Assembly: GCA_002746305.1 (NCBI GenBank) | Contig: NVWV01000008.1 | Span: 125,353-189,352, forward strand | DNA length: 64,000 bases | Source: Bacteroidota bacterium | GTDB taxonomy: Bacteria; Bacteroidota; Bacteroidia; NS11-12g; UBA9320 | Reading direction: 5' to 3' | Part shown: piece after piece, positions 51,616 to 63,049 of the stretch | Numbering within the stretch: the first letter of the stretch is position 1 | How the letters are laid out: each line of letters opens with the position of its first letter | Position numbers and translations under genes: made by a program | Notes under the pieces: generated by a model | Database searches by the model: none | Told to the model about the DNA's origin: nothing | Seen by the model: the letters and a program-made list of their open reading frames with translations, nothing else

Positions 51616-54600
51616 ATGAGTTCATACGATTTTAAAGCTATAGAAAGCAAATGGCAAGGTGAATGGTCTGCCAAAGACATTTACAAAACGACTATAGACC
51701 ACAGTAAGCCAAAGTATTATGCTTTGGATATGTTCCCCTATCCCAGTGGAGCAGGCTTACATGTCGGACACCCTTTGGGCTACATAGCTTCCGACATAGT
51801 AAGTAGATACAAACGGCTCAATGGTTTTAATGTATTACATCCAATGGGGTTTGATGCATTTGGTCTACCCGCAGAACAATATGCTATCCAAACTGGACAA
51901 CATCCCGCAGTAACTACAGAAGAGAATCTTGCTCGTTACAAGGAACAATTAAACAGAATTGGTTTTTGTTATGACTGGAGTCGAGAGATAAAAACCACTG
52001 ACCCTTCTTACTACAAATGGACACAATGGATTTTTATTCAACTCTTTGAGTCTTGGTACAATGCCAAAACAGATAAGGCCGAAGACATAAACTCCTTGAT
52101 TACCATTTTCGAAAATGAAGGGAATGTAAGTATCCAACACAACGGAGATGAAGTAGAAAAATTCACCGCTGAAGACTGGGAAAATAAGAATAAACAAGAG
52201 CGAGAAGCTGTTTTACAATCCTACAGACTTGCTTTTCAAAAAGAAACTACGGTTAACTGGTGCGAAGCTCTTGGTACTGTTTTAGCAAATGATGAGGTCA
52301 AAGATGGTTTATCTGAAAGAGGTGGACATCCAGTAACTCAAAAACTCATGAAGCAATGGTACTTGCGTATCACCGCCTATTCTGACCGTTTACTCGAAGG
52401 ACTAAACAGAATAGATTGGACTGATAGTATCAAAGAAACGCAACGCAACTGGATAGGAAGAAGTGAAGGAGCCAGTATCCAATTTAATCTCATAGGTTCA
52501 AAATCCAAGATCGAGGTATTTACAACTAGACCTGACACCATTTTTGGTAGTACGTTTATGGTTTTAGCACCCGATCATGAACTGGTAATTGAAATTATAA
52601 CCGCTGAACAAAAAGAGGAGATTGAGGCATACGCAAAAACTGCTGCAAACAAAACAGAGCTTGAACGCAAAAAGGATAAAAAAGTAAGTGGCGTTTTTAC
52701 AGGAACGTATGCGGAGCACCCATTTACAAAAAAGAAACTACCCGTTTATATATCTGAATATGTATTAAGTGGATACGGTACAGGAGCTATTATGGCTGTA
52801 CCTGCTCATGATGAGCGAGATCATGCATTCGCAAAGAAATTTGGATTAGAGATTATACAGGTAATCGGTGGGGGTTCGGTTCGTGAGGACACGAATGATG
52901 AAGACGAAATAAACGTGCAAGAAGAAAGCTACGATGCTAAAAGTGGTCGTTTGATGAATAGCGAAAACTTTGACAGATTATCTGTAAAAGAAGGAGCTGC
53001 TGCCATCATTCAACTTTCTGAGGAACGTGGTTTTGGAACACGAAAGATAAATTTCAAACTGCGTGATGCAGGATATAGTCGTCAACGGTATTGGGGAGAA
53101 CCTTTTCCAATCATCCATCAAGATGGAATACCTACAGTAGACACTAATCTACCTACGGAATTACCGAAAGTAGAAAGCTATGAACCTACAGGTACAGGAG
53201 AAAGCCCTTTGGCTAGTAATGAAGAATGGGTAAATACCCCTTCTGGTAGGAGAGAAACGGATACCATGCCTGGATATGCGGGAAGTAGTTGGTATTTCCT
53301 ACGTTATATGGACCCCAACAACGATACTGAGTTTGCAGGAAAGGAAAGCTTGGAATACTGGAATCAAGTGGACTTGTACATAGGAGGAACCGAACATGCC
53401 ACAGGTCACTTACTGTACAGCCGTTTCTGGACTAAGTTTTTGTATGACAGAGGCTACATTCAATTTGACGAACCGTTCAAGAAACTGGTAAATCAAGGAA
53501 TGATTCAAGGGGAGAGTATGATGGCCTACCTTTTGTCAGTAAGTCTTAAAGCCAAAAAGGGAAACTTTAAAGTCTTTCAAGATGCTAAAGTAGTTAAAAC
53601 ACAGTATATACTAATCTCAAAAAACAGAATTAGCGATTTTAAAACAACCGATGATATTTTCCAAGCCAATCCATTATTTAAGAAGAGTTTTGATGATTTC
53701 ATCAAACAGGAGGAAGAAAATGCACTAAACTCCCTTAAGCCTTTTAACCAAACAGAGTATAGCTACGGAAGATTAGAACCATCAATCATATATAAGCGAC
53801 ACATTGATATTAATCTTGTAAAAAGGAACATAGTAAATTTAGATGGTCTTAAAGCAGATTCAAAATACAGCCATTTCTCAGACTCAAATATAATCACCGA
53901 GCTTGACGGTACTTTCATCTGTGAACCACAAGTCGAAAAAATGTCCAAGTCCAAGTTCAATGTTGTCAACCCAGACGACATCTGTGCGGAGTACGGAGCA
54001 GATACGCTTCGACTGTATGAAATGTTCCTCGGACCACTGGAAGATAGTAAGCCTTGGAGCACCAAAGGAATAGACGGTACACACCGTTTCTTGCGTAAGC
54101 TATGGGCATTGTTCTTTGACTTGGACGGGAACACACTGTGGAAAGATGATGAAGCGAGCAAAGACTCATTAAAAACTTTGCACAAGACCATTAAGAAGAT
54201 TACAGACGATATAAACAACTTCTCTTTCAATACTTCTGTAGCTCAGTTTATGATTTGTGTAAACGAACTAGGCAGTCAAAAATGCTCGAACAAAGAAGTT
54301 TTGGAACAGGTGCTTGTACTATTAGCTCCTTTCGCTCCTCATATCACAGAAGAATTGTGGAATGCAATAGGCAACGAAGGTTTCATTGCTGATGCAAAAT
54401 GGCCAGTGTATAATGAAAGCCATGTTGTAGAGAGTAGCAAGGTCTACCCTATTTCTATCAACGGCAAAACGAGAACAAATCTTGAATTCCCTCTTGACAT
54501 GAGCAAAGAAGACATTGAGAAAAATGTACTTGCCAATGAAGTGGTACTGAAATGGCTAGACGGCAAACCACCTAAGAAAGTAATAGTAGTACCTGGCAGG

Positions 54601-54621
54601 ATTGTGAATGTGGTGATGTAG
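51616..54621 (+). CDS. leuS: leucine--tRNA ligase
   Basis: HVGHPLGY (HIGH). KMSKSK. CP1 editing domain. 1001 aa. Confidence 0.95.
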   Translation: MSSYDFKAIESKWQGEWSAKDIYKTTIDHSKPKYYALDMFPYPSGAGLHVGHPLGYIASDIVSRYKRLNGFNVLHPMGFDAFGLPAEQYAIQTGQHPAVTTEENLARYKEQLNRIGFCYDWSREIKTTDPSYYKWTQWIFIQLFESWYNAKTDKAEDINSLITIFENEGNVSIQHNGDEVEKFTAEDWENKNKQEREAVLQSYRLAFQKETTVNWCEALGTVLANDEVKDGLSERGGHPVTQKLMKQWYLRITAYSDRLLEGLNRIDWTDSIKETQRNWIGRSEGASIQFNLIGSKSKIEVFTTRPDTIFGSTFMVLAPDHELVIEIITAEQKEEIEAYAKTAANKTELERKKDKKVSGVFTGTYAEHPFTKKKLPVYISEYVLSGYGTGAIMAVPAHDERDHAFAKKFGLEIIQVIGGGSVREDTNDEDEINVQEESYDAKSGRLMNSENFDRLSVKEGAAAIIQLSEERGFGTRKINFKLRDAGYSRQRYWGEPFPIIHQDGIPTVDTNLPTELPKVESYEPTGTGESPLASNEEWVNTPSGRRETDTMPGYAGSSWYFLRYMDPNNDTEFAGKESLEYWNQVDLYIGGTEHATGHLLYSRFWTKFLYDRGYIQFDEPFKKLVNQGMIQGESMMAYLLSVSLKAKKGNFKVFQDAKVVKTQYILISKNRISDFKTTDDIFQANPLFKKSFDDFIKQEEENALNSLKPFNQTEYSYGRLEPSIIYKRHIDINLVKRNIVNLDGLKADSKYSHFSDSNIITELDGTFICEPQVEKMSKSKFNVVNPDDICAEYGADTLRLYEMFLGPLEDSKPWSTKGIDGTHRFLRKLWALFFDLDGNTLWKDDEASKDSLKTLHKTIKKITDDINNFSFNTSVAQFMICVNELGSQKCSNKEVLEQVLVLLAPFAPHITEELWNAIGNEGFIADAKWPVYNESHVVESSKVYPISINGKTRTNLEFPLDMSKEDIEKNVLANEVVLKWLDGKPPKKVIVVPGRIVNVVM

Positions 54622-54825
54622 GTCCATCATCCATGTTCGAATAGCAGTATTTAAGCCATCCAACATCATTTTCTTTAGTATGAGACAATTAAAAGTCTCA
54701 AATGGAGTACTTGCATTAAAATAATTCCTTCCAAATGCAACCCTCTCCTATTATCCTTGTATATCATTTAAAACAACAAAGGTATTAGCACGCCCAAAGA
54801 GCATATCGTAATAATACAGCAGTGT

Positions 54826-55335
54826 ATGACAGGTAATCCTGATGCAGAGTACCAATTGTACCAACTGTATTCTGGTGCTTTGTACAACACCTGTCTGCGA
54901 ATGCTCCGATATGTGCCAGAAGCAGAAGATATGTTACAAGAGACATTCATAAAGATTTTTAAAAACTTGAAGAGTTTCAAGTTAGATTCTAATTTTTATA
55001 CGTGGACCAATAGAATAGCAATCAACAGCTGTATCAACCATCAGAGTAAGAAAGGAATAGACTATACAATGGACTATGAGCATGAAGTGGCCATGAAAGC
55101 TGCTGATGAGGAATATAATGAAGACGAAATAGAATATTCTGTAGAAATGGTGAACAGAGGGATCATGAATCTCCCCAATGGATACAGAGAAATAATAAGT
55201 TTATACCTACTGGAAGGGTATGACCACAAAGAAATAGGTGAGATACTTGGCATAAGTAACTCCACCAGCAAATCACAGTATGCCCGAGCTAAAAAGAAAT
55301 TAAAAGAACTATTATCAGCACAAGCACATGGATAA
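54826..55335 (+). CDS. ECF sigma-70 factor
   Basis: Region 2 (EDMLQETFIKIFKNLKSF...YTWTNRIAINSCINHQ). Region 4 (EIGEILGISNSTSKSQYARAKKKLKELL). Confidence 0.75.
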   Translation: MTGNPDAEYQLYQLYSGALYNTCLRMLRYVPEAEDMLQETFIKIFKNLKSFKLDSNFYTWTNRIAINSCINHQSKKGIDYTMDYEHEVAMKAADEEYNEDEIEYSVEMVNRGIMNLPNGYREIISLYLLEGYDHKEIGEILGISNSTSKSQYARAKKKLKELLSAQAHG

Positions 55336-55888
55336 TTTAGAAGATTTTATTAAAAAAAACAAAGGTGAGTTTGATTCTAAAACCCCTAGTCCAGATCTCT
55401 GGAACCGCATTAAGGAGGAACGTGAAGAAGAAAAAGTCATCCCTATAGCTACGGGCAAACGGGCTGGAATACCAATGCAAATAATGAGAGTGGCTGCAAG
55501 CTTTTTGATACTTGCATTAGCAGCTTTTGGTGGATATCAGTTACTGAATGATAGCAACAACGAAATGGATAATGAAGTTACTCTTGAGACTTCTAACCTT
55601 CCTACTGAATTAGTAGAATTGGACCAATACTACGAAAGTCAAGTAACCGTTTCATTAACTCAAATCAATCTAATTATATCTGATACTTCCATTCTAAATG
55701 AAGTAAAATCTGAATTGAAAATGCTAGATGACGAGAAGGGAAAACTATTCTCTGAATATGGAAAAGAAATGGATGACCAACAGATTGTTGAAGCCTTAAT
55801 GAATACGTATAGAATGAAACTTCAAGTTTTGGAAAATATATTATCACTTTTAAACGAAAATGAAAATGAAGCAGATTTATCAATATAG
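55328..55888 (+). CDS. putative anti-sigma factor (single-pass membrane protein)
   Basis: ATGGATAA overlap with the sigma gene. One TM (VAASFLILALAAFGGY). Coiled-coil C-terminus. Confidence 0.4.
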   Translation: MDNLEDFIKKNKGEFDSKTPSPDLWNRIKEEREEEKVIPIATGKRAGIPMQIMRVAASFLILALAAFGGYQLLNDSNNEMDNEVTLETSNLPTELVELDQYYESQVTVSLTQINLIISDTSILNEVKSELKMLDDEKGKLFSEYGKEMDDQQIVEALMNTYRMKLQVLENILSLLNENENEADLSI

Positions 55889-56930
55889 TCTAGTATGTAT
55901 CCTACTAATTAGTGTACCTACTCTTTGCTCTGCTCAGTTCAAAGACTCAAAAACTTACACCAAAGCCATTAGTCTAAGAGAGGGAGGACGACTGTCTTTA
56001 AGAAATAAACACGGGAATATAAATATTACGAGTTGGGACAAGGATTCCGTAGTGCTAACCGCAACCATAAGTGGTCGGTCTAAATCTTTAGCTAAACTGC
56101 AAGAGAGTATTGCTAAGACGAATATTAATTTTAGACAATCAGGAAACTCAGTGGATATAGCAACAGTCATATCGGAAACCTCTTTTAGCAAAGGATTGAA
56201 TCAAATTATGTCGGCAGTTGGAGTGGAGAATGAAATCACAATCAACTATGAAATAAAAGTGCCTAGGGGAATGCGAATGGCTATTACCAATAAATATGGA
56301 GATATATACCTTGACAATCATACTGGAAAGCTTGACATTGAACTGAGCCATGGTAATTTGAGAGCCAATTCACTCAAAGAAGTAAACCATCTGCGTTCAA
56401 ACTTTGGGAATATATATATCATTGAGGTTGAAAAACTAAAAGGGAATCTCCTTTTCAGTCAATTGGAAATAGAGAAAGCAGATATTTTAGACCTCTCATC
56501 CAAAAGCACAGAATATGAATTTGAAACCGTTAATCAATTGAGAATATCCTCATCCAACGACAAAATAGATATAGACGAGGTGGGAGATTTCAATCTGGTA
56601 GGGTCTCTTAGCAAAGTATCTATTGATGACTTGCTAAATTCCTCTTCCATTAGTTTAAAATACGGTAAGGTCCGCATTAAAAAAGTACACAAAGAGGTGT
56701 GTTCATTTATGGCAACTACTACACGCTGCACTTTAGAAATAGGTCTAGAAAAGGGTAGTAATAACAAAAAAATCAGTGGTATGATTGGCGAGGGGCAGAT
56801 TCAGAATGTAAATCCTGACCTCAAAATAATTTCTAAAAGTCTCAATTTGGATGCACATATAGGTGATGTCAATGCTGCGAACTGCACCTATCACTTCACT
56901 TGTCAAAAAACTAAAATTTATTTCAAGTAA
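55860..56930 (+). CDS. DUF4097-like beta-solenoid protein (putative adhesin / LiaF-YvlB-like)
   Basis: Signal peptide. Repeated GNI/GDI/GKL...I units (HGNINITSWD, GDIYLDNHTGKLDIELSHGNL, NFGNIYIIEVE). Confidence 0.45.
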   Translation: MKMKQIYQYSLVCILLISVPTLCSAQFKDSKTYTKAISLREGGRLSLRNKHGNINITSWDKDSVVLTATISGRSKSLAKLQESIAKTNINFRQSGNSVDIATVISETSFSKGLNQIMSAVGVENEITINYEIKVPRGMRMAITNKYGDIYLDNHTGKLDIELSHGNLRANSLKEVNHLRSNFGNIYIIEVEKLKGNLLFSQLEIEKADILDLSSKSTEYEFETVNQLRISSSNDKIDIDEVGDFNLVGSLSKVSIDDLLNSSSISLKYGKVRIKKVHKEVCSFMATTTRCTLEIGLEKGSNNKKISGMIGEGQIQNVNPDLKIISKSLNLDAHIGDVNAANCTYHFTCQKTKIYFK

Positions 56931-56967
56931 AATGCAACCCTACCAGATCTTCTCGGTATATGTTAAT

Positions 56968-57609
56968 ATGAGATCAATAAGAAACTATATTTCTATCATC
57001 ATCCTAGCAATCGTATCACTTAATAGTATAGATGTAAAAGCTCAAAGTAGACAAGATGAAGAGGATTATAATGCACTTTTTAAACTTAAAAACATACGAG
57101 GTTATGCAGGATTTACTGCTGGAGTTCTCAACATTGAAGGAGATAACATTACGGCTAAGACAGGAGGTTCTGTTGCTGTGATATTGAACCACCGATTGGC
57201 ACTAGGAGTAACAGGTAGTGGATTTGCTGGCTTTCAAAACACTGTTATTGATAACAAAAAGTATTCGATGGTTGGAGGATATGGAGGTTTACTTATTGAA
57301 CCTATTATATTTCCAAAGAGAGTGGTTCATCTCAGTTTTCCTATTGCATTTGGCGGTGGAGAAAATCAATACTTTAAGGACTCTTTGGGTTACCGAGATT
57401 GGGACCATAATTACAGAGACGAATTTGTCCAAGATTTCATCTACATAGAACCTGGAATAAATCTAGAATTCAATCTTACCAAGTTTATGAGATTTGGAAT
57501 CACCAGTTCATATATGTTCACCAACACAATTAACACCTCTCCCATGGACGTTACTCAGCTTGACGGATTTAGCATAGCAGCCAATTTAAAACTTGGTTGG
57601 TTTAAATAG
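56968..57609 (+). CDS. small outer-membrane beta-barrel protein
   Basis: Start re-set to MRSIRNYISIIILAIVSLNSIDVKAQ. Alternating hydrophobic beta-strand pattern with Gly-rich turns. Confidence 0.35.
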   Translation: MRSIRNYISIIILAIVSLNSIDVKAQSRQDEEDYNALFKLKNIRGYAGFTAGVLNIEGDNITAKTGGSVAVILNHRLALGVTGSGFAGFQNTVIDNKKYSMVGGYGGLLIEPIIFPKRVVHLSFPIAFGGGENQYFKDSLGYRDWDHNYRDEFVQDFIYIEPGINLEFNLTKFMRFGITSSYMFTNTINTSPMDVTQLDGFSIAANLKLGWFK

Positions 57610-57688
57610 AGTACCCCTTGTAACTTAATACTCCCTCATTCTATATACAAATAGGACACTTAACACCGATAAAATAAATCTTACCATA

Positions 57689-60079
57689 ATGAAAAAAATA
57701 ATTGCAATTGTATTGCTCATTGGAACCTCCTTGTCTGGATTTTCTCAACTTACCCAAAACATTAGAGGCTCTATAAAAGATGCGGACACCAAGACTCCAC
57801 TTATTGGAGCGACGGTTACGGTTTTCTATGGAGAGAATAAAACAGGGGGTATAAGTAATGAAGAAGGGCTATTTATTGTCAAGAATGTTCCAGTTGGAAG
57901 AATAAACATTACGGTGCAGATGTTGGGTTATGAGAACCAAATAAGAACCCAAATTGAACTGAAATCTGCAAAAGAACTCGTACTTGATTTGGAACTCCAA
58001 GAATCCTTTGCGAGTGTTGGAACAATTGTAGTGACAGGCAAGATAAGCAAGGAAAAACCACTAAATGAAATGGCTACATTAAGTGCCCGATCATTTACCG
58101 TGGAAGAAACCAGTAGATATGCAGCAGCAGCATTTGACCCTGCACGTATGGCACAAAATTTTGCGGGTGTCTCTAGTGGTGGTAACGACTTATTCAATGA
58201 AATAGTTGTGCGAGGTAATTCTCCCAAAGGTGTACTCTGGAGACTGGAAGGAATAGAGATTGCAAATCCAAATCACTTTGCAGCTGGAGGCGGATCAGGA
58301 GGAGCAATAAGCATGCTTAGTAGCAGTACACTAGGCGGTTCTGATTTCTTCACAGGAGCATTTCCTGCGGAGTACGGCAACGCTCTATCTGGAGTTTTTG
58401 ATTTACGATTGCGAAAAGGTAATAACGAGAAAAGAGAAAATTCATTTATGATAGGAGCTTTAGGAGTTGAACTATCTACAGAAGGTCCTTTCAGTAAAAA
58501 CTACAACGGATCTTACCTAATAAACTATCGCTATTCTACTTTAGGAATTCTAAATGCCGTGGGACTTAATCCAGTTGGAGATTTGCTGCCTACCTATCAG
58601 GATTTATCCTATAACTTTTACTTTCCCACCAAAAAGCTTGGTCAATTTAGCATTTTCGGTGTAATGGGTCAAAACGGTACAGAAAACTATGATGACTTTA
58701 TTGCTACTGATACTTCTGAAGAGACCAGAGATGATTACGACGGATTTACAGAAACCGGTTTTGTGAATACTACAGGCATCAAGCACATTTACAATTTTAG
58801 TAACAAAGGATATCTTAAGACAGTGGCTTCCCATTCTTACAACAAAATATCCATTTTGGATGAATCCCTCGTTATTGACACTCTAAAAAATACCGTTTTT
58901 AGATTTAATGAGGATGACATATCCAATGTAGAAACACAGGCTCGATTAAGTATGATGTTCAACTACAAATTCAATTCTAGAAATACACTTAGAGCAGGAG
59001 TTGTACTTTCTCAACTGGACTATAATTTCTTAAGTAAATTTCATGACTATGAAGACGACAGTACGTTCATCGCTTTTGATGATAAAAATAGCTCATTACA
59101 ATACCAAGCTTATGCTCAATGGAAATACAGATTAACCAAAGAGTTAACACTAAATACAGGTGTCCATCTTACTCGTTTAGGAGCGACGAGTGCCAACAGC
59201 ATAGAACCTAGAGTATCACTTAGCTATAAAGCCTCACCCAAACTTTCGGTGTCTGCATCCATTGGTAAACACTCCCGTCCAGAACATATTGCTCTTTACC
59301 TTTTCAAATCTAAAGATGCAAATGGAAATGAAACAAGACCTAATAAAAATTTAGAACTTACAAAGGCATGGCATTATGTAGTTGCAGTGGATTATAAGCT
59401 AAATCCAAATGTGCGAATCAAAACAGAAGTGTATTATCAGTCTCTTTTTGATGTCCCAATATCCATTGCATCAGGCTCTAACGTTTCTGTACTAAATACC
59501 AGTAACTACTGGGATGCCATTTTCAATAGCGACACTACTCATCTCATGAATGGTGGTACTGGGGCAAATGTTGGCTTAGACTTTACTTTGGAAAGGTTCT
59601 TTAACAAAAACTACTATTATCTTCTTACGGCGACCATATTCAATAGTTCATACAAGACAGCTACCAACAAATCATTTAGCACCAAATACAACGGAAACTA
59701 TCAGTTTAACTTACTAGGCGGAAAAGAATTTAACTTGAGGAAGAAGAATCGAAAGATTGGAATCAATGGGAAAGCAAATTTTTACGGCGGCAACCGATAT
59801 ACTCCTATCCTATTGCAAGAATCAATAGCTGAAGGTGGTACAGTAAGAGATAAAGAAAATCCATTTGGAGAACAAACTCCTCTTTACTACAGATTCGATG
59901 TAGGGTTTAGCTACAAGTTTAATAGAGCAAAATCCAACCATAGCATAATGCTGGATATACAAAATGTCTCCGCTAGAGAAAATATTGGAGGGACTTATTA
60001 CAACAGTAAAAAACAAACTATAGAAAGCTGGACTATGACGGGACTCTTTCCATTTTTCAACTACAGAATAGAATTTTAA
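57689..60079 (+). CDS. TonB-dependent receptor with N-terminal carboxypeptidase-regulatory-like domain
   Basis: Signal peptide. IRGSIKDADTKTPLIGATVTV...GLFIVKNVPVG (CarbopepD_reg). Plug (VVTGKISKEKP...SFTVEE). C-terminal aromatic ...NYRIEF. Confidence 0.7.
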   Translation: MKKIIAIVLLIGTSLSGFSQLTQNIRGSIKDADTKTPLIGATVTVFYGENKTGGISNEEGLFIVKNVPVGRINITVQMLGYENQIRTQIELKSAKELVLDLELQESFASVGTIVVTGKISKEKPLNEMATLSARSFTVEETSRYAAAAFDPARMAQNFAGVSSGGNDLFNEIVVRGNSPKGVLWRLEGIEIANPNHFAAGGGSGGAISMLSSSTLGGSDFFTGAFPAEYGNALSGVFDLRLRKGNNEKRENSFMIGALGVELSTEGPFSKNYNGSYLINYRYSTLGILNAVGLNPVGDLLPTYQDLSYNFYFPTKKLGQFSIFGVMGQNGTENYDDFIATDTSEETRDDYDGFTETGFVNTTGIKHIYNFSNKGYLKTVASHSYNKISILDESLVIDTLKNTVFRFNEDDISNVETQARLSMMFNYKFNSRNTLRAGVVLSQLDYNFLSKFHDYEDDSTFIAFDDKNSSLQYQAYAQWKYRLTKELTLNTGVHLTRLGATSANSIEPRVSLSYKASPKLSVSASIGKHSRPEHIALYLFKSKDANGNETRPNKNLELTKAWHYVVAVDYKLNPNVRIKTEVYYQSLFDVPISIASGSNVSVLNTSNYWDAIFNSDTTHLMNGGTGANVGLDFTLERFFNKNYYYLLTATIFNSSYKTATNKSFSTKYNGNYQFNLLGGKEFNLRKKNRKIGINGKANFYGGNRYTPILLQESIAEGGTVRDKENPFGEQTPLYYRFDVGFSYKFNRAKSNHSIMLDIQNVSARENIGGTYYNSKKQTIESWTMTGLFPFFNYRIEF

Positions 60080-60090
60080 AACATATAATC

Positions 60091-60819
60091 ATGAAAAACA
60101 CACTAAAATTATCTTTAATCGTGGCTGTATTGGTCATCTTTTCCGCTTGTGAAAGAAGTATTTGCATAAAAGGAAACGGAGAAAGAGATACCCGAAACAT
60201 AGATGTTGCGGACTTTACTGGAGTAGAACTTGACGGATCATTTGATGTAGTCATACTCCAAGGGAATCGTTTCAAAGTTGAAGCAATCGGGGATGAAAAC
60301 ATCCTTGAGAGTATCCATGCAAGAGAAGTTGGGGGAGTTTGCAAATTGGATTTGAATAGAGGTTGTTACAAAGACTATAAACTCACTATTGAGGTAACTA
60401 TGCCTGAACTTACTGACGTATTTTTGGATGGATCTGGAGACTTCACTATTGAAGATTTCAATAACATTAACACCCTAAATCTAGAAATAAGTGGAAGTGG
60501 AAGCATTGAACTCTATGACCTTTCAGGATTGCAAAACATAAACTCTAAAATAGATGGCAGTGGTGATATAAATTTCAAACGAATTATTGGAGGAATAGAT
60601 AATGTGAAGACTATCATAAATGGCTCTGGCGATTACAACGGATTTGGCCTCCAAGCAGATAATGTCATCACCCGTATTAGCGGAAGTGGTACTTCTGAAG
60701 TAAATGCGAGTACCACACTGAATGCAACTATAGAAGGTAGCGGAAACATCTTATACAAAGGCACTCCAACAATAAGCAAGAGTATCACGGGATCAGGAAG
60801 TTTGATAAATGCAAATTAG
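60091..60819 (+). CDS. DUF2807-like (GIN-domain) beta-helical lipoprotein
   Basis: Lipobox FSAC. Repeated xGSGxI units (LDGSGDFTI, ISGSGSIEL, IDGSGDINF, INGSGDYN, ISGSGTSEV, IEGSGNIL, ITGSGSLIN). Confidence 0.55.
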   Translation: MKNTLKLSLIVAVLVIFSACERSICIKGNGERDTRNIDVADFTGVELDGSFDVVILQGNRFKVEAIGDENILESIHAREVGGVCKLDLNRGCYKDYKLTIEVTMPELTDVFLDGSGDFTIEDFNNINTLNLEISGSGSIELYDLSGLQNINSKIDGSGDINFKRIIGGIDNVKTIINGSGDYNGFGLQADNVITRISGSGTSEVNASTTLNATIEGSGNILYKGTPTISKSITGSGSLINAN

Positions 60820-60838
60820 TTTCATGCATTTGTCAATC

Positions 60839-60866
60839 GGAGAAATTAGGTAAGAGTTTCTCCTTT
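60839..60866 (+). terminator. hairpin ggagaaa-N11-tttctcc followed by TTT
   Basis: Read directly, 20 nt downstream of the DUF2807 stop. Confidence 0.35.
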
Positions 60867-61210
60867 AACCCCACTATTTGAGAGCATTATAAAACCTGAA
60901 GACAGGTCACTGTTAAAGGTAAAAAAAGTAGAATGGGCCACTCACATGAGTATTTTGGAAGAGGTTTATAAATTGGATTTGTAATCGTAATCCTAAAGTA
61001 GAATTAATTCAATTGCTCACTTAGAATGAGTTAAGAATAATTCCTACATTCAATATAGATACAAGTTTTCATCACCTTTCAATCTCATTATTTGCATTCT
61101 TTTACAAATTCAATTCGCTAGTTGTCAGCCACTTAGTAATGATTAATAAATTAAATGTAACGTTTATCTCTGTTCTTATACTAATGAATCCGAACAATGA
61201 ACTTATTAAT

Positions 61211-61405
61211 ATGAAACTAAAATCAATCACCACTTTATTCCTCCTAGTTGTGGGACTTTTATCTCAGGCTCAATTACCTGATATGATAAAGGATAAAAGC
61301 AATTTCATTGCGGTAGATGCCGCTCATCTTGTTGGTGTTAATGGATTAATCCAACTTCTAAAAAACAAAGGATATACTATTACGCCAAAATACTCAGTCA
61401 AATAA
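61211..61405 (+). CDS. small secreted protein (about 64 aa)
   Basis: MKLKSITTLFLLVVGLLSQAQ signal peptide. Short and unverifiable. Confidence 0.25.
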   Translation: MKLKSITTLFLLVVGLLSQAQLPDMIKDKSNFIAVDAAHLVGVNGLIQLLKNKGYTITPKYSVK

Positions 61406-61426
61406 TAAATTTGATCCGACAACATT

Positions 61427-61912
61427 GTGGACCACACGGAATCTAATTTCTTAAATCTGATTAATGAGCATAGAGGCATACTGCATAAAATATGCAATAT
61501 GTACACAGACTCATTTGAAGATAAAGAAGACTTAAGACAGGAAATCACCCTTCAACTTTGGCGATCTTTCTCTTCCTTTAAAGGAAGCAGCAAATTCTCA
61601 ACATGGATGTATACTGTATCCCTTAATACGGCAATTCTTTTCCTTAAAAAAGATAAAAAAAGAATTCAAACTTCAGAAATCACTGTGAACACACCTGATG
61701 TTGCAACGACCCGTTTTGAAGATGATAAAATGGCGACCTTCTACCAAGCCGCTAAAAAATTAACCAAAATAGAAAGAGCTGTGGTATTCCTATACCTTGA
61801 AGGTCTGTCGCACAAAGAAATAGCACTAAATCTTGGACTTACAACGGTAAACGCCAGAGTACGTCTTTCAAGATCAAAAAATAAATTAAGAAAAATTATA
61901 GATAAAACATGA
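61427..61912 (+). CDS. ECF sigma-70 factor
   Basis: Region 2 (EDLRQEITLQLWRSFSSF...FSTWMYTVSLNTAI). Region 4 (LEGLSHKEIALNLGLTTVNARVRLSRSKNKLRKII). Confidence 0.7.
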   Translation: MDHTESNFLNLINEHRGILHKICNMYTDSFEDKEDLRQEITLQLWRSFSSFKGSSKFSTWMYTVSLNTAILFLKKDKKRIQTSEITVNTPDVATTRFEDDKMATFYQAAKKLTKIERAVVFLYLEGLSHKEIALNLGLTTVNARVRLSRSKNKLRKIIDKT

Positions 61913-62526
61913 ATTTAGAAGAAATAAAAGAAAATTGGGAAGAAGACAACCCAACGACCGCAGAGATAATATCGTTAAAGGATAAAAAAAGAGTAGCCTC
62001 TCCAATACAAAAAATCAGCACTAATTTAATCATGGAGATTATCGGGTATGCAATCTCTGGGATTCTTTTGGCCACTTATATGGTATTATCCGAAGAACGG
62101 GAACCTATATCCCAAACCTTATTCGTTATTTTATCCTTTATTGGATGTATAAACATAGCTCTATATCTTGTACGAGCAATCAAAGTATATCTGAGTATTA
62201 AGAAAATAAACCTAACAGACCCAAATAGTTTAAAGAAGTTTTGTTTCAACTTTAATGTTAGTTTAGAAATGTACAAGGCATACAATAACACCATGATGCC
62301 CGTTGCGATTTTCCTAGGAGCAAGTATTGGTTCTCACAACTTATTCGATCATTTTTATGCTGACTATATTAGCAATGGATTTACGCCTCAATTCCTACTG
62401 ATAATGTTAATCGTATTTCTAATTGTTCTTGCAGCAGCATATTTCCTCACTTGGTTAGCTGCACATTGGTTCTATGGTAAACACATTAAATCAATTGAAG
62501 AATTAACAAACGATTTATATTCGTAA
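61909..62526 (+). CDS. polytopic membrane protein, candidate anti-sigma partner
   Basis: ATGA overlap with the sigma gene. 4 TM. No ChrR/RskA/FecR motif. Confidence 0.35.
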   Translation: MNLEEIKENWEEDNPTTAEIISLKDKKRVASPIQKISTNLIMEIIGYAISGILLATYMVLSEEREPISQTLFVILSFIGCINIALYLVRAIKVYLSIKKINLTDPNSLKKFCFNFNVSLEMYKAYNNTMMPVAIFLGASIGSHNLFDHFYADYISNGFTPQFLLIMLIVFLIVLAAAYFLTWLAAHWFYGKHIKSIEELTNDLYS

Positions 62527-62548
62527 ATATAGGATAGACTAAAGTTCC

Positions 62549-63049
62549 ATGGCCAACAAATTCAGAATAGAGACTAAAAGGCTCATTCTTCGGGAAATAA
62601 CAGTACATGACGCTTCTGCCATGTATGAGTTAAATCTCGACCCACTTATTAAGCAGTACACTTTAGATGACCCGTATACATCCATAGAAGCTGCTGCCGA
62701 GTCGTGGGCTACCTACGATCATTACAAAAAACATGGCTATGGAAGATGGGCTGTTGTTTTGAAAGAAACAAATGAAATACTTGGCTGGTGCGGTTTAAAA
62801 AACAATGGTAATTTTATTGATATAGGATACCGATTGATTCCTCGGTTTAGAGGAAATGGATATACAACAGAAGCTGCCAAAGCCTGCATAGAGTATGGAT
62901 TTAAGACACTAAATATGCAGGAAATAATAGCTAGAACAATTAAGGACAATACAGCATCTATTAAAGTCATAAAAAAGCTTGGCATGCACTACTGGAAAGA
63001 GGAGACATGCAAAAACCATCCAGCCATATACTATAGAATTTCGAAATAG
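62549..63049 (+). CDS. GNAT family N-acetyltransferase (RimJ/RimL-like)
   Basis: RLILREIT...GWCGL...IGYRLIPRFRGNGYTTEAAKACIEYGF is the acetyl-CoA motif A region. Confidence 0.65.
   Translation: MANKFRIETKRLILREITVHDASAMYELNLDPLIKQYTLDDPYTSIEAAAESWATYDHYKKHGYGRWAVVLKETNEILGWCGLKNNGNFIDIGYRLIPRFRGNGYTTEAAKACIEYGFKTLNMQEIIARTIKDNTASIKVIKKLGMHYWKEETCKNHPAIYYRISK

Follow-up and report, generated by a model that had tools for sequence, protein, structure and literature searches.

A conserved ECF sigma factor module of Bacteroidota encoding a putative single-pass anti-sigma factor and two predicted Toastrack proteins

Bacteroidota carry ~20 extracytoplasmic function (ECF) sigma factors per genome (PMC7826278). 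Most of those encoded outside polysaccharide utilization loci lack a known signal or partner. The closest described systems include rpoE-rseA-rseB-rseC of E. coli, in which an autoregulated ECF sigma factor is followed by a single-pass anti-sigma factor and, directly after it, a periplasmic accessory protein, with outputs acting at the outer membrane; the FecI/FecR/FecA and Bacteroides SusC-type systems, which bring an ECF sigma factor, a membrane anti-sigma factor and a TonB-dependent receptor together in one block; and the Firmicute LiaF/LiaG (liaIH-GFSR), YvlB and VraT systems, whose Toastrack genes adjoin membrane-linked transcription control. The Firmicute Toastrack proteins are linked to envelope-stress signaling and are predicted to be cytoplasmic, at the inner face of the membrane (PMC11237479). 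Here we describe a six-gene locus in a 64,000-nucleotide (nt) stretch of a Bacteroidota genome (GCA_002746305.1, contig NVWV01000008.1, positions 125,353 to 189,352 of the forward strand; hereafter the window), in which an ECF sigma gene precedes genes for a putative anti-sigma factor, a divergent Toastrack-like protein (ORF3), a small outer-membrane barrel (ORF4), a TonB-dependent receptor and a DUF2807 lipoprotein. The best overall explanation of this locus, which we hold with moderate confidence, is a self-contained, autoregulated ECF sigma envelope module conserved across Bacteroidota.

All six open reading frames (ORFs) appear in the ORF list of the window on the + strand at the same coordinates as in the original prediction, and the overlaps it described at the first two junctions are present: the sigma gene (54826-55335) and the anti-sigma gene (55328-55888) share 8 nt (55328-55335), and the anti-sigma gene and ORF3 (55860-56930) share 29 nt (55860-55888). 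To place this arrangement in a wider context, we compiled 72 related loci, some of them redundant, from contigs carrying ORF3 homologues and from a scan of species-representative genomes, and annotated them by iterated profile searches; promoter counts use the 60 non-identical loci. The scan was built on two peptide patterns from the close alignment of ORF3, so that the taxonomic spread is a lower bound. It returned 62 loci, almost all from Bacteroidota (Bacteroidales, Cytophagales, Saprospiraceae, Marinoscillum, Fulvivirga and Labilibaculum), with Toastrack proteins of 21-33% identity. Carriers available in culture include Marinoscillum luteum KCTC 23939 (L039) and Labilibaculum filiforme 59.16B (L053). 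The sigma and anti-sigma genes stand directly upstream of the Toastrack gene on the same strand in 63 of the 72 loci, most of the others being cut by contig ends, and neighboring genes overlap or lie a few nt apart. The proposed gene order is therefore kept well beyond this genome, in Bacteroidales, Cytophagales, Saprospiraceae and others. A DUF2807 gene lies 3' of the Toastrack gene in 45/72 loci and a barrel of the ORF4 family downstream in 25/72; the order in other lineages is often Toastrack, DUF2807, a 164-aa (amino acid) protein and barrel. The conserved core is thus the sigma factor, the anti-sigma factor and the Toastrack protein, and the window holds one lineage's version of a widespread Bacteroidota cassette. 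The protein of ~164 aa, which has no assigned family and no counterpart in the window, occurs between DUF2807 and barrel in loci from Bacteroides-type metagenome-assembled genomes (MAGs; L013, L017, L019, L020, L022, L025 and others). One locus labeled Alphaproteobacteria (L055) hardly differs from the Bacteroidales locus L056 in layout and promoters, and its label may be a binning error.

The regions 5' of the sigma genes are enriched in a dyad of the form TG[CT]AAC-N16-18-GT[CA], the best dyad occurring in 26 of 60 sequences as compared with at most 9 in shuffles. With a relaxed pattern, 56 of the 60 non-identical loci have the dyad at a fixed spacing from the sigma coding region. In the window, this predicted ECF-type promoter (P1) is TGCAACCCTCTCCTATTATCCTTGTATAT at 54736-54764 on the + strand, with a -35 element TGCAACCC, 15 nt and a -10 element GTATAT. 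The strict pattern TGCAACCC-N13-16-GTATAT has just two matches in the 64-kb window, where 0 are expected. The second of these, the predicted promoter P2 (TGCAACCC-N15-GTATAT, 56933-56961, + strand), starts 3 nt past the ORF3 stop codon, and 6 nt separate the end of its -10 element from the ATG at 56968; a repeat finder independently returned the P1/P2 pair as family D2. Between the window, L001 and L003 the -35 and -10 elements of P2 are invariant and the spacer is variable, and P2 is found in 7 of 7 close-clade loci that include the junction, always as GTATAT, 6 nt, ATG. The window, L001, L073, L075 and L077 belong to the close clade, which has L003/L004 as its sister lineage; in other clades the second promoter site sits before DUF2807.

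The two sites also vary together. In all 15 other non-identical loci with two sites, and hence in 16/16 with the window, the -35/-10 variant of P2 is that of P1, the variants being TGTAAC/GTC (11 loci), TGCAAC/GTC (2 loci) and TGCAAC/GTA (3 loci, including the window), which is the pattern expected if one sigma factor reads both promoters. With P1 ahead of the sigma gene and a second promoter copy after the Toastrack gene, the locus, originally taken as one co-directional block, indeed lies on one strand but is better read as two promoter-driven units. Both units are probably driven by the same sigma factor, to judge from the shared promoter sequences, and the copy before the downstream genes suggests that these belong to the sigma regulon, as had been supposed. 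The gene start of the barrel is relevant to this junction. In the public annotation, ORF4 (COA58_11875) is 225 aa long, corresponding to a start at ATG 56932; this codon lies within the P2 -35 element (aTGCAACCC) and is GTG in L003; the ATG at 56968 is the ORF4 start conserved in all relatives, with which a P2 mRNA would be leaderless or nearly so.

The first gene encodes a group 4 (ECF) sigma factor of 169-183 aa, with Pfam matches to Sigma70_r2 (9e-14) and r4_2 (1e-13) and a TIGR02937 score of 100.1 bits against a cutoff of 42.9 in NCBIfam. Two marks of an ECF system are present at the level of sequence: a putative anti-sigma gene next to the sigma gene and in the same direction, and a predicted autoregulatory promoter of the AAC/GTC-GTA type. 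The sigma reading frame is open from 54772, and a conserved N-terminus is encoded 5' of the ATG at 54826 (region 54772-54828, GISTPKEHIVIIQQC). ATG, GTG and TTG are all lacking from the corresponding upstream stretch in L003, and the NCBI record of L074 starts its sigma factor at ATT. Of 60 related loci, 48 have a TTG precisely 16 codons 5' of the aligned position, and in 39 this TTG is the sole canonical start. The true start in the window is probably the ATT at 54784, upstream of ATG 54826, which would give a protein of 183 aa, and a weak start codon (TTG, or ATT 54784 in the window) seems to be a conserved property of these sigma genes. The ECF group to which they belong may already be catalogued without description.

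The product of the second gene is a putative anti-sigma factor of 186 aa, with a cytoplasmic N-terminus of ~45 aa, one transmembrane segment, seen in the hydropathy profile, at ~50-72 and a helical periplasmic domain of ~110 aa. Its assignment follows from position, the family standing directly 3' of the sigma gene in 63 loci. The family is coherent, with an N-terminal motif LExFIxxNRxEFDxxEPxxxxWxxI followed by the transmembrane segment and then ELxEAExYY...NYRxKLxIL. No match to the protein was found in Pfam or NCBIfam, even at permissive thresholds, and a PDB sequence search gave nothing informative, the family profile meeting designed coiled coils only; single relatives have weak matches to DUF4179 and DUF5056. 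The protein also differs from Class I/zf-HC2 anti-sigma factors, in which an N-terminal four-helix domain extends over ~80-90 aa and often contains an HxxxCxxC motif: here just ~45 residues precede the transmembrane segment and a Cys/His motif is absent. A FecR domain was found neither in this protein (Pfam) nor, at E<=0.1, among 24 members of the family, and the description of the anti-sigma factor as short, single-pass and not FecR-like is borne out.

ORF3 encodes a protein of 356 aa with a signal peptide, based on hydropathy and the N-terminal sequence, and had been labeled DUF4097, a repetitive beta-solenoid family. No match to Pfam DUF4097 (PF13349) was found at E<=10, NCBIfam was likewise blank, and none of 19 ORF3 homologues matched DUF4097 at E<=1; of 10 distant representatives one did (E 0.004), its 16.9 bits falling short of the cutoff of 22.9. 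A Pfam DUF4097 identity was thus rejected, the gathering score not being reached. The fold part of the assignment survives. An AlphaFold2 (AF2) model from the 19 homologues, with a predicted local distance difference test score (pLDDT) of 87.8 and a predicted template modeling score (pTM) of 0.82, has an alpha/beta region at the N-terminus and a long beta-helix after it, and in a Foldseek search of the PDB its top 21 matches are all Toastrack structures described as "putative adhesin" (4qrk, 3pet, 3lyc, 3ljy, 3jx8, 4opw, 4ygu and 7muc_AM), with E > 0.5 beyond these. On the strength of these matches, the predicted structure identifies ORF3 as a very divergent DUF2807-like Toastrack, in keeping with the membership of the Toastrack superfamily (DUF4097/DUF2154/DUF2807; PMC11237479), and the module as the holder of two Toastrack paralogues. 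A PDB sequence search with the ORF3 family profile gave 0 matches. The family itself is large: an exhaustive profile search with ORF3 retrieved 12,453 cluster representatives at E<=1e-3, of which 2,352 reach E<=1e-30. Almost all have ~350-380 aa and align over their full length, and the tiny family of 21 relatives from a word-indexed search was accordingly discarded as a sensitivity artefact. Members that have a name are called "hypothetical protein", and no Pfam or NCBIfam model of the family exists. Two Clostridia MAGs (L071 and L072) encode an ORF3-like protein of 430 aa, with no sigma or anti-sigma neighbors.

The second unit begins with ORF4 (56968-57609, alternative 5' end 56863, + strand), a protein of 213 aa with a signal peptide and eight strands. 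Its AF2 model (pLDDT 86.8) has 1bxw as the best Foldseek match in the PDB (E 1.2e-6), followed by Ail, NspA, OprF-N, OmpX and OmpW, and conforms to the small 8-stranded barrel class (OmpA-TM/OmpX/OmpW). It has at least 141 homologues; ORF4 itself has no Pfam or NCBIfam match even at permissive thresholds, and OMP_b-brl is matched weakly by 3 of 33 relatives. The last gene (60091-60819, + strand) encodes a lipoprotein of 242 aa that is, as proposed, a beta-solenoid DUF2807 protein in the canonical sense (PF10988, E 4.7e-37, 127.9 bits with a cutoff of 24.2, the match spanning all 181 profile positions). Its lipobox cysteine is invariant in 15 orthologues, and its profile matches 3jx8, 3lyc, 4opw, 3pet, 3ljy, 7muc_AM and 4ygu.

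Between them lies the gene for the TonB-dependent receptor (57689-60079, + strand), a protein of 796 aa with a signal peptide and, in Pfam, an N-terminal CarboxypepD_reg domain, a Plug and a TonB-dependent barrel; a PDB sequence search with it gave 0 matches. Coupling to this receptor, to which the original prediction drew attention, is not a defining trait of the locus: orthologues of 796 aa follow the barrel at the same position only in the close clade (the window, L001, L073, L075 and L077). The sister loci L003/L004 are without it and have the order sigma, anti-sigma, Toastrack, barrel, DUF2807; the remaining more distant related loci examined also lack the receptor, and relatives at 34-39% identity sit outside the module in unrelated contexts. 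The receptor is a late, clade-specific recruit on the output side, cargo and not a signal transducer. In the 79-nt spacer between barrel and receptor genes, a promoter-like element TGTAAC-N17-TATATA occurs at 57620-57648, with a -10 unlike those of P1 and P2; L001 and L075 keep it in part, and the short spacer of L073 lacks it.

Taken together, these features are consistent with the following scheme. From P1, the first unit would yield the sigma factor, the single-pass anti-sigma factor and the exported DUF2807-like Toastrack from genes that overlap or nearly abut, the first of which would begin with a weak start codon; from P2, the second unit would supply envelope proteins, in this lineage the 8-stranded barrel, the TonB-dependent receptor and the DUF2807 lipoprotein. 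The short N-terminal domain of the anti-sigma factor would tether the sigma factor at the inner membrane, and its helical periplasmic domain, together with the co-expressed Toastrack, may form a joint sensor in the manner of RseA/RseB or of LiaF-type Toastracks. Envelope perturbation would release the sigma factor, raise transcription from P1 and P2 and lead to remodeling of the outer membrane. A co-sensor role for the Toastrack is probable because its gene is in every case grouped with the regulators, ahead of P2, and its translation is often coupled to that of the anti-sigma gene; this constant place in the regulatory unit is read here by analogy with the known signaling roles of Toastracks (PMC11237479). 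More tentatively, and with well under even confidence, the scheme could be narrowed to one in which the 356-aa Toastrack is the periplasmic partner of an undescribed class of short anti-sigma factors and an extracytoplasmic, Gram-negative counterpart of LiaF/VraT, with the sigma/anti-sigma ratio fixed by the weak start, outputs added through duplicated promoters, and a distribution over much of Bacteroidota.

Several points weigh against the autoregulated module as set out above. The anti-sigma factor has no match to a known family, and its cytoplasmic part (~45 aa) is too short for the classical four-helix domain. An hhalign comparison of the ORF3 family with the DUF2807 profile of the locus is co-linear and not significant (E 0.025, probability 1.9%), so the kinship of ORF3 with DUF2807 rests on predicted structure. 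The proposed contact between Toastrack and anti-sigma factor is deduced from gene position, and the promoters are predictions. The co-variation of P1 and P2 corresponds to about three independent clades and should not be counted as 16 separate events. Moreover, the strict P2 is absent in 21 loci, where DUF2807 follows the Toastrack gene by 3-30 nt, and the two-unit layout is therefore not universal; loci with so short a gap are probably single operons. In the Bacteroides-type loci, no P2-like promoter was found before the gene for the 164-aa protein or the barrel gene.

The chief rival reading is that the Toastrack of the first unit is an output only, structural, adhesin-like or associated with the outer membrane, and that the anti-sigma factor senses alone, for example through regulated proteolysis, with a regulon of both Toastracks, the barrel and the receptor. 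We regard this as a possible account, though less likely than the joint-sensor scheme. Solved DUF2807 proteins are annotated as putative adhesins or lipoproteins, 7muc_AM is structural in the Legionella Dot/Icm outer-membrane complex, and both Toastracks here are exported. Output genes downstream of an anti-sigma gene are, besides, common in ECF operons. An output role fits less well, however, with a Toastrack gene that P2 never separates from the regulator genes and that in many lineages shares nucleotides with the anti-sigma gene, and the presence of a canonical DUF2807 paralogue on the output side is a split more easily explained by differing roles of the two paralogues, as in the joint-sensor scheme.

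The same comparison of loci bears on whether the receptor could sense a ligand and signal to the anti-sigma factor as in FecA/FecR/FecI or Bacteroides SusC-type systems. A TonB-dependent receptor beside a sigma/anti-sigma pair is by itself no proof of trans-envelope signaling, and the presence of this one in the same co-directional block, with its position kept in L001, L073, L075 and L077, is offset by its absence from L003/L004 and the more distant loci and by the relatives outside the module. Additionally, the receptor lacks an STN or other N-terminal signaling domain in Pfam and a SusC signature (no NCBIfam match at E<=0.01), and there is no adjacent SusD, the next gene being that for DUF2807. 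With no STN in the receptor, no FecR in the anti-sigma factor and a receptor restricted to one clade, the locus is not of the FecIRA or SusC type, in agreement with the original prediction, and we consider signaling of this kind very improbable. That the genes are functionally unlinked and adjacent by chance is harder still to credit: an independent promoter could fit into the 79 nt that precede the receptor gene, but the order recurs in dozens of genomes whose Toastracks are only 21-33% identical, with overlapping junctions and duplicated promoters, and this conservation in effect refutes a chance arrangement.

The surroundings of the autoregulated module complete the description of the locus. 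A leucyl-tRNA synthetase gene (51616-54621) lies directly 5' of it in the window and in L001, L003 and L074, so that the module occupies a syntenic place in this clade. The GC (guanine plus cytosine) fraction is even across the six genes (~0.33-0.42), with no sign of a foreign island; an Rfam search of 54000-62600 gave zero matches, and a generic scan for sigma-70 promoters and terminators gave background levels only. On the 3' side, an ORF of 88 aa (61139-61405) aligns with only the final 40 positions of the TraB/PrgY/GumN profile (E 5e-10) and is probably what remains of a gene, or else a gene with a misassigned start. Within 61427-62526, a second ECF sigma gene (161 aa, GTG start) overlaps by 4 nt the gene for a membrane protein of 205 aa, which has several hydrophobic segments and no family match; both are missing at the equivalent place in L001 and L003, and they therefore form a separate pair of sigma and putative anti-sigma factor.

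Literature searches combining DUF2807, DUF4097 or Toastrack with sigma or anti-sigma factors returned no account of this Bacteroidota module, the group tables of the ECF classification lying outside their coverage. The cassette is defined well enough to be testable, with a conserved promoter pair, an anti-sigma factor that has no family model and a Toastrack family of more than 12,000 representatives all annotated "hypothetical". Of the known systems, rpoE-rseA-rseB-rseC is alike in its overall plan, and the AAC (-35) and GTC-type (-10) elements of RpoE promoters are also found here. It differs in that the anti-sigma factor of the Bacteroidota module has no detectable RseA-like or zf-HC2 domain and a cytoplasmic part of only ~45 aa, that the accessory protein is a predicted Toastrack beta-helix and not of the RseB fold, and that a second promoter copy lies inside the locus. 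FecI/FecR/FecA and the SusC-type systems share the three kinds of protein in one block, but FecR, STN, the SusC signature and SusD are all missing here, and the receptor is dispensable across the family. The solved DUF2807 proteins (3pet, BF0245; 3lyc, 3ljy and 3jx8 from Parabacteroides distasonis; 4opw; 7muc_AM from Legionella) are ~110 residues shorter than ORF3, share no significant sequence or profile similarity with it and, judged by their descriptions, have no known link to a sigma factor. The Firmicute Toastracks are again alike in standing beside membrane-linked transcription control, and the analogy with LiaF/YvlB drawn in the original prediction holds at the level of the fold. It does not extend to location, those proteins being predicted cytoplasmic (PMC11237479) and the two encoded here carrying a signal peptide or a lipobox; moreover, ORF3 fails the DUF4097 hidden Markov model, and the Firmicute proteins pair with two-component systems and not, as here, with an ECF sigma factor and its putative anti-sigma factor. 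The module would thus extend the link between Toastracks and envelope stress from cytoplasmic proteins of Firmicutes to exported proteins of diderm bacteria.

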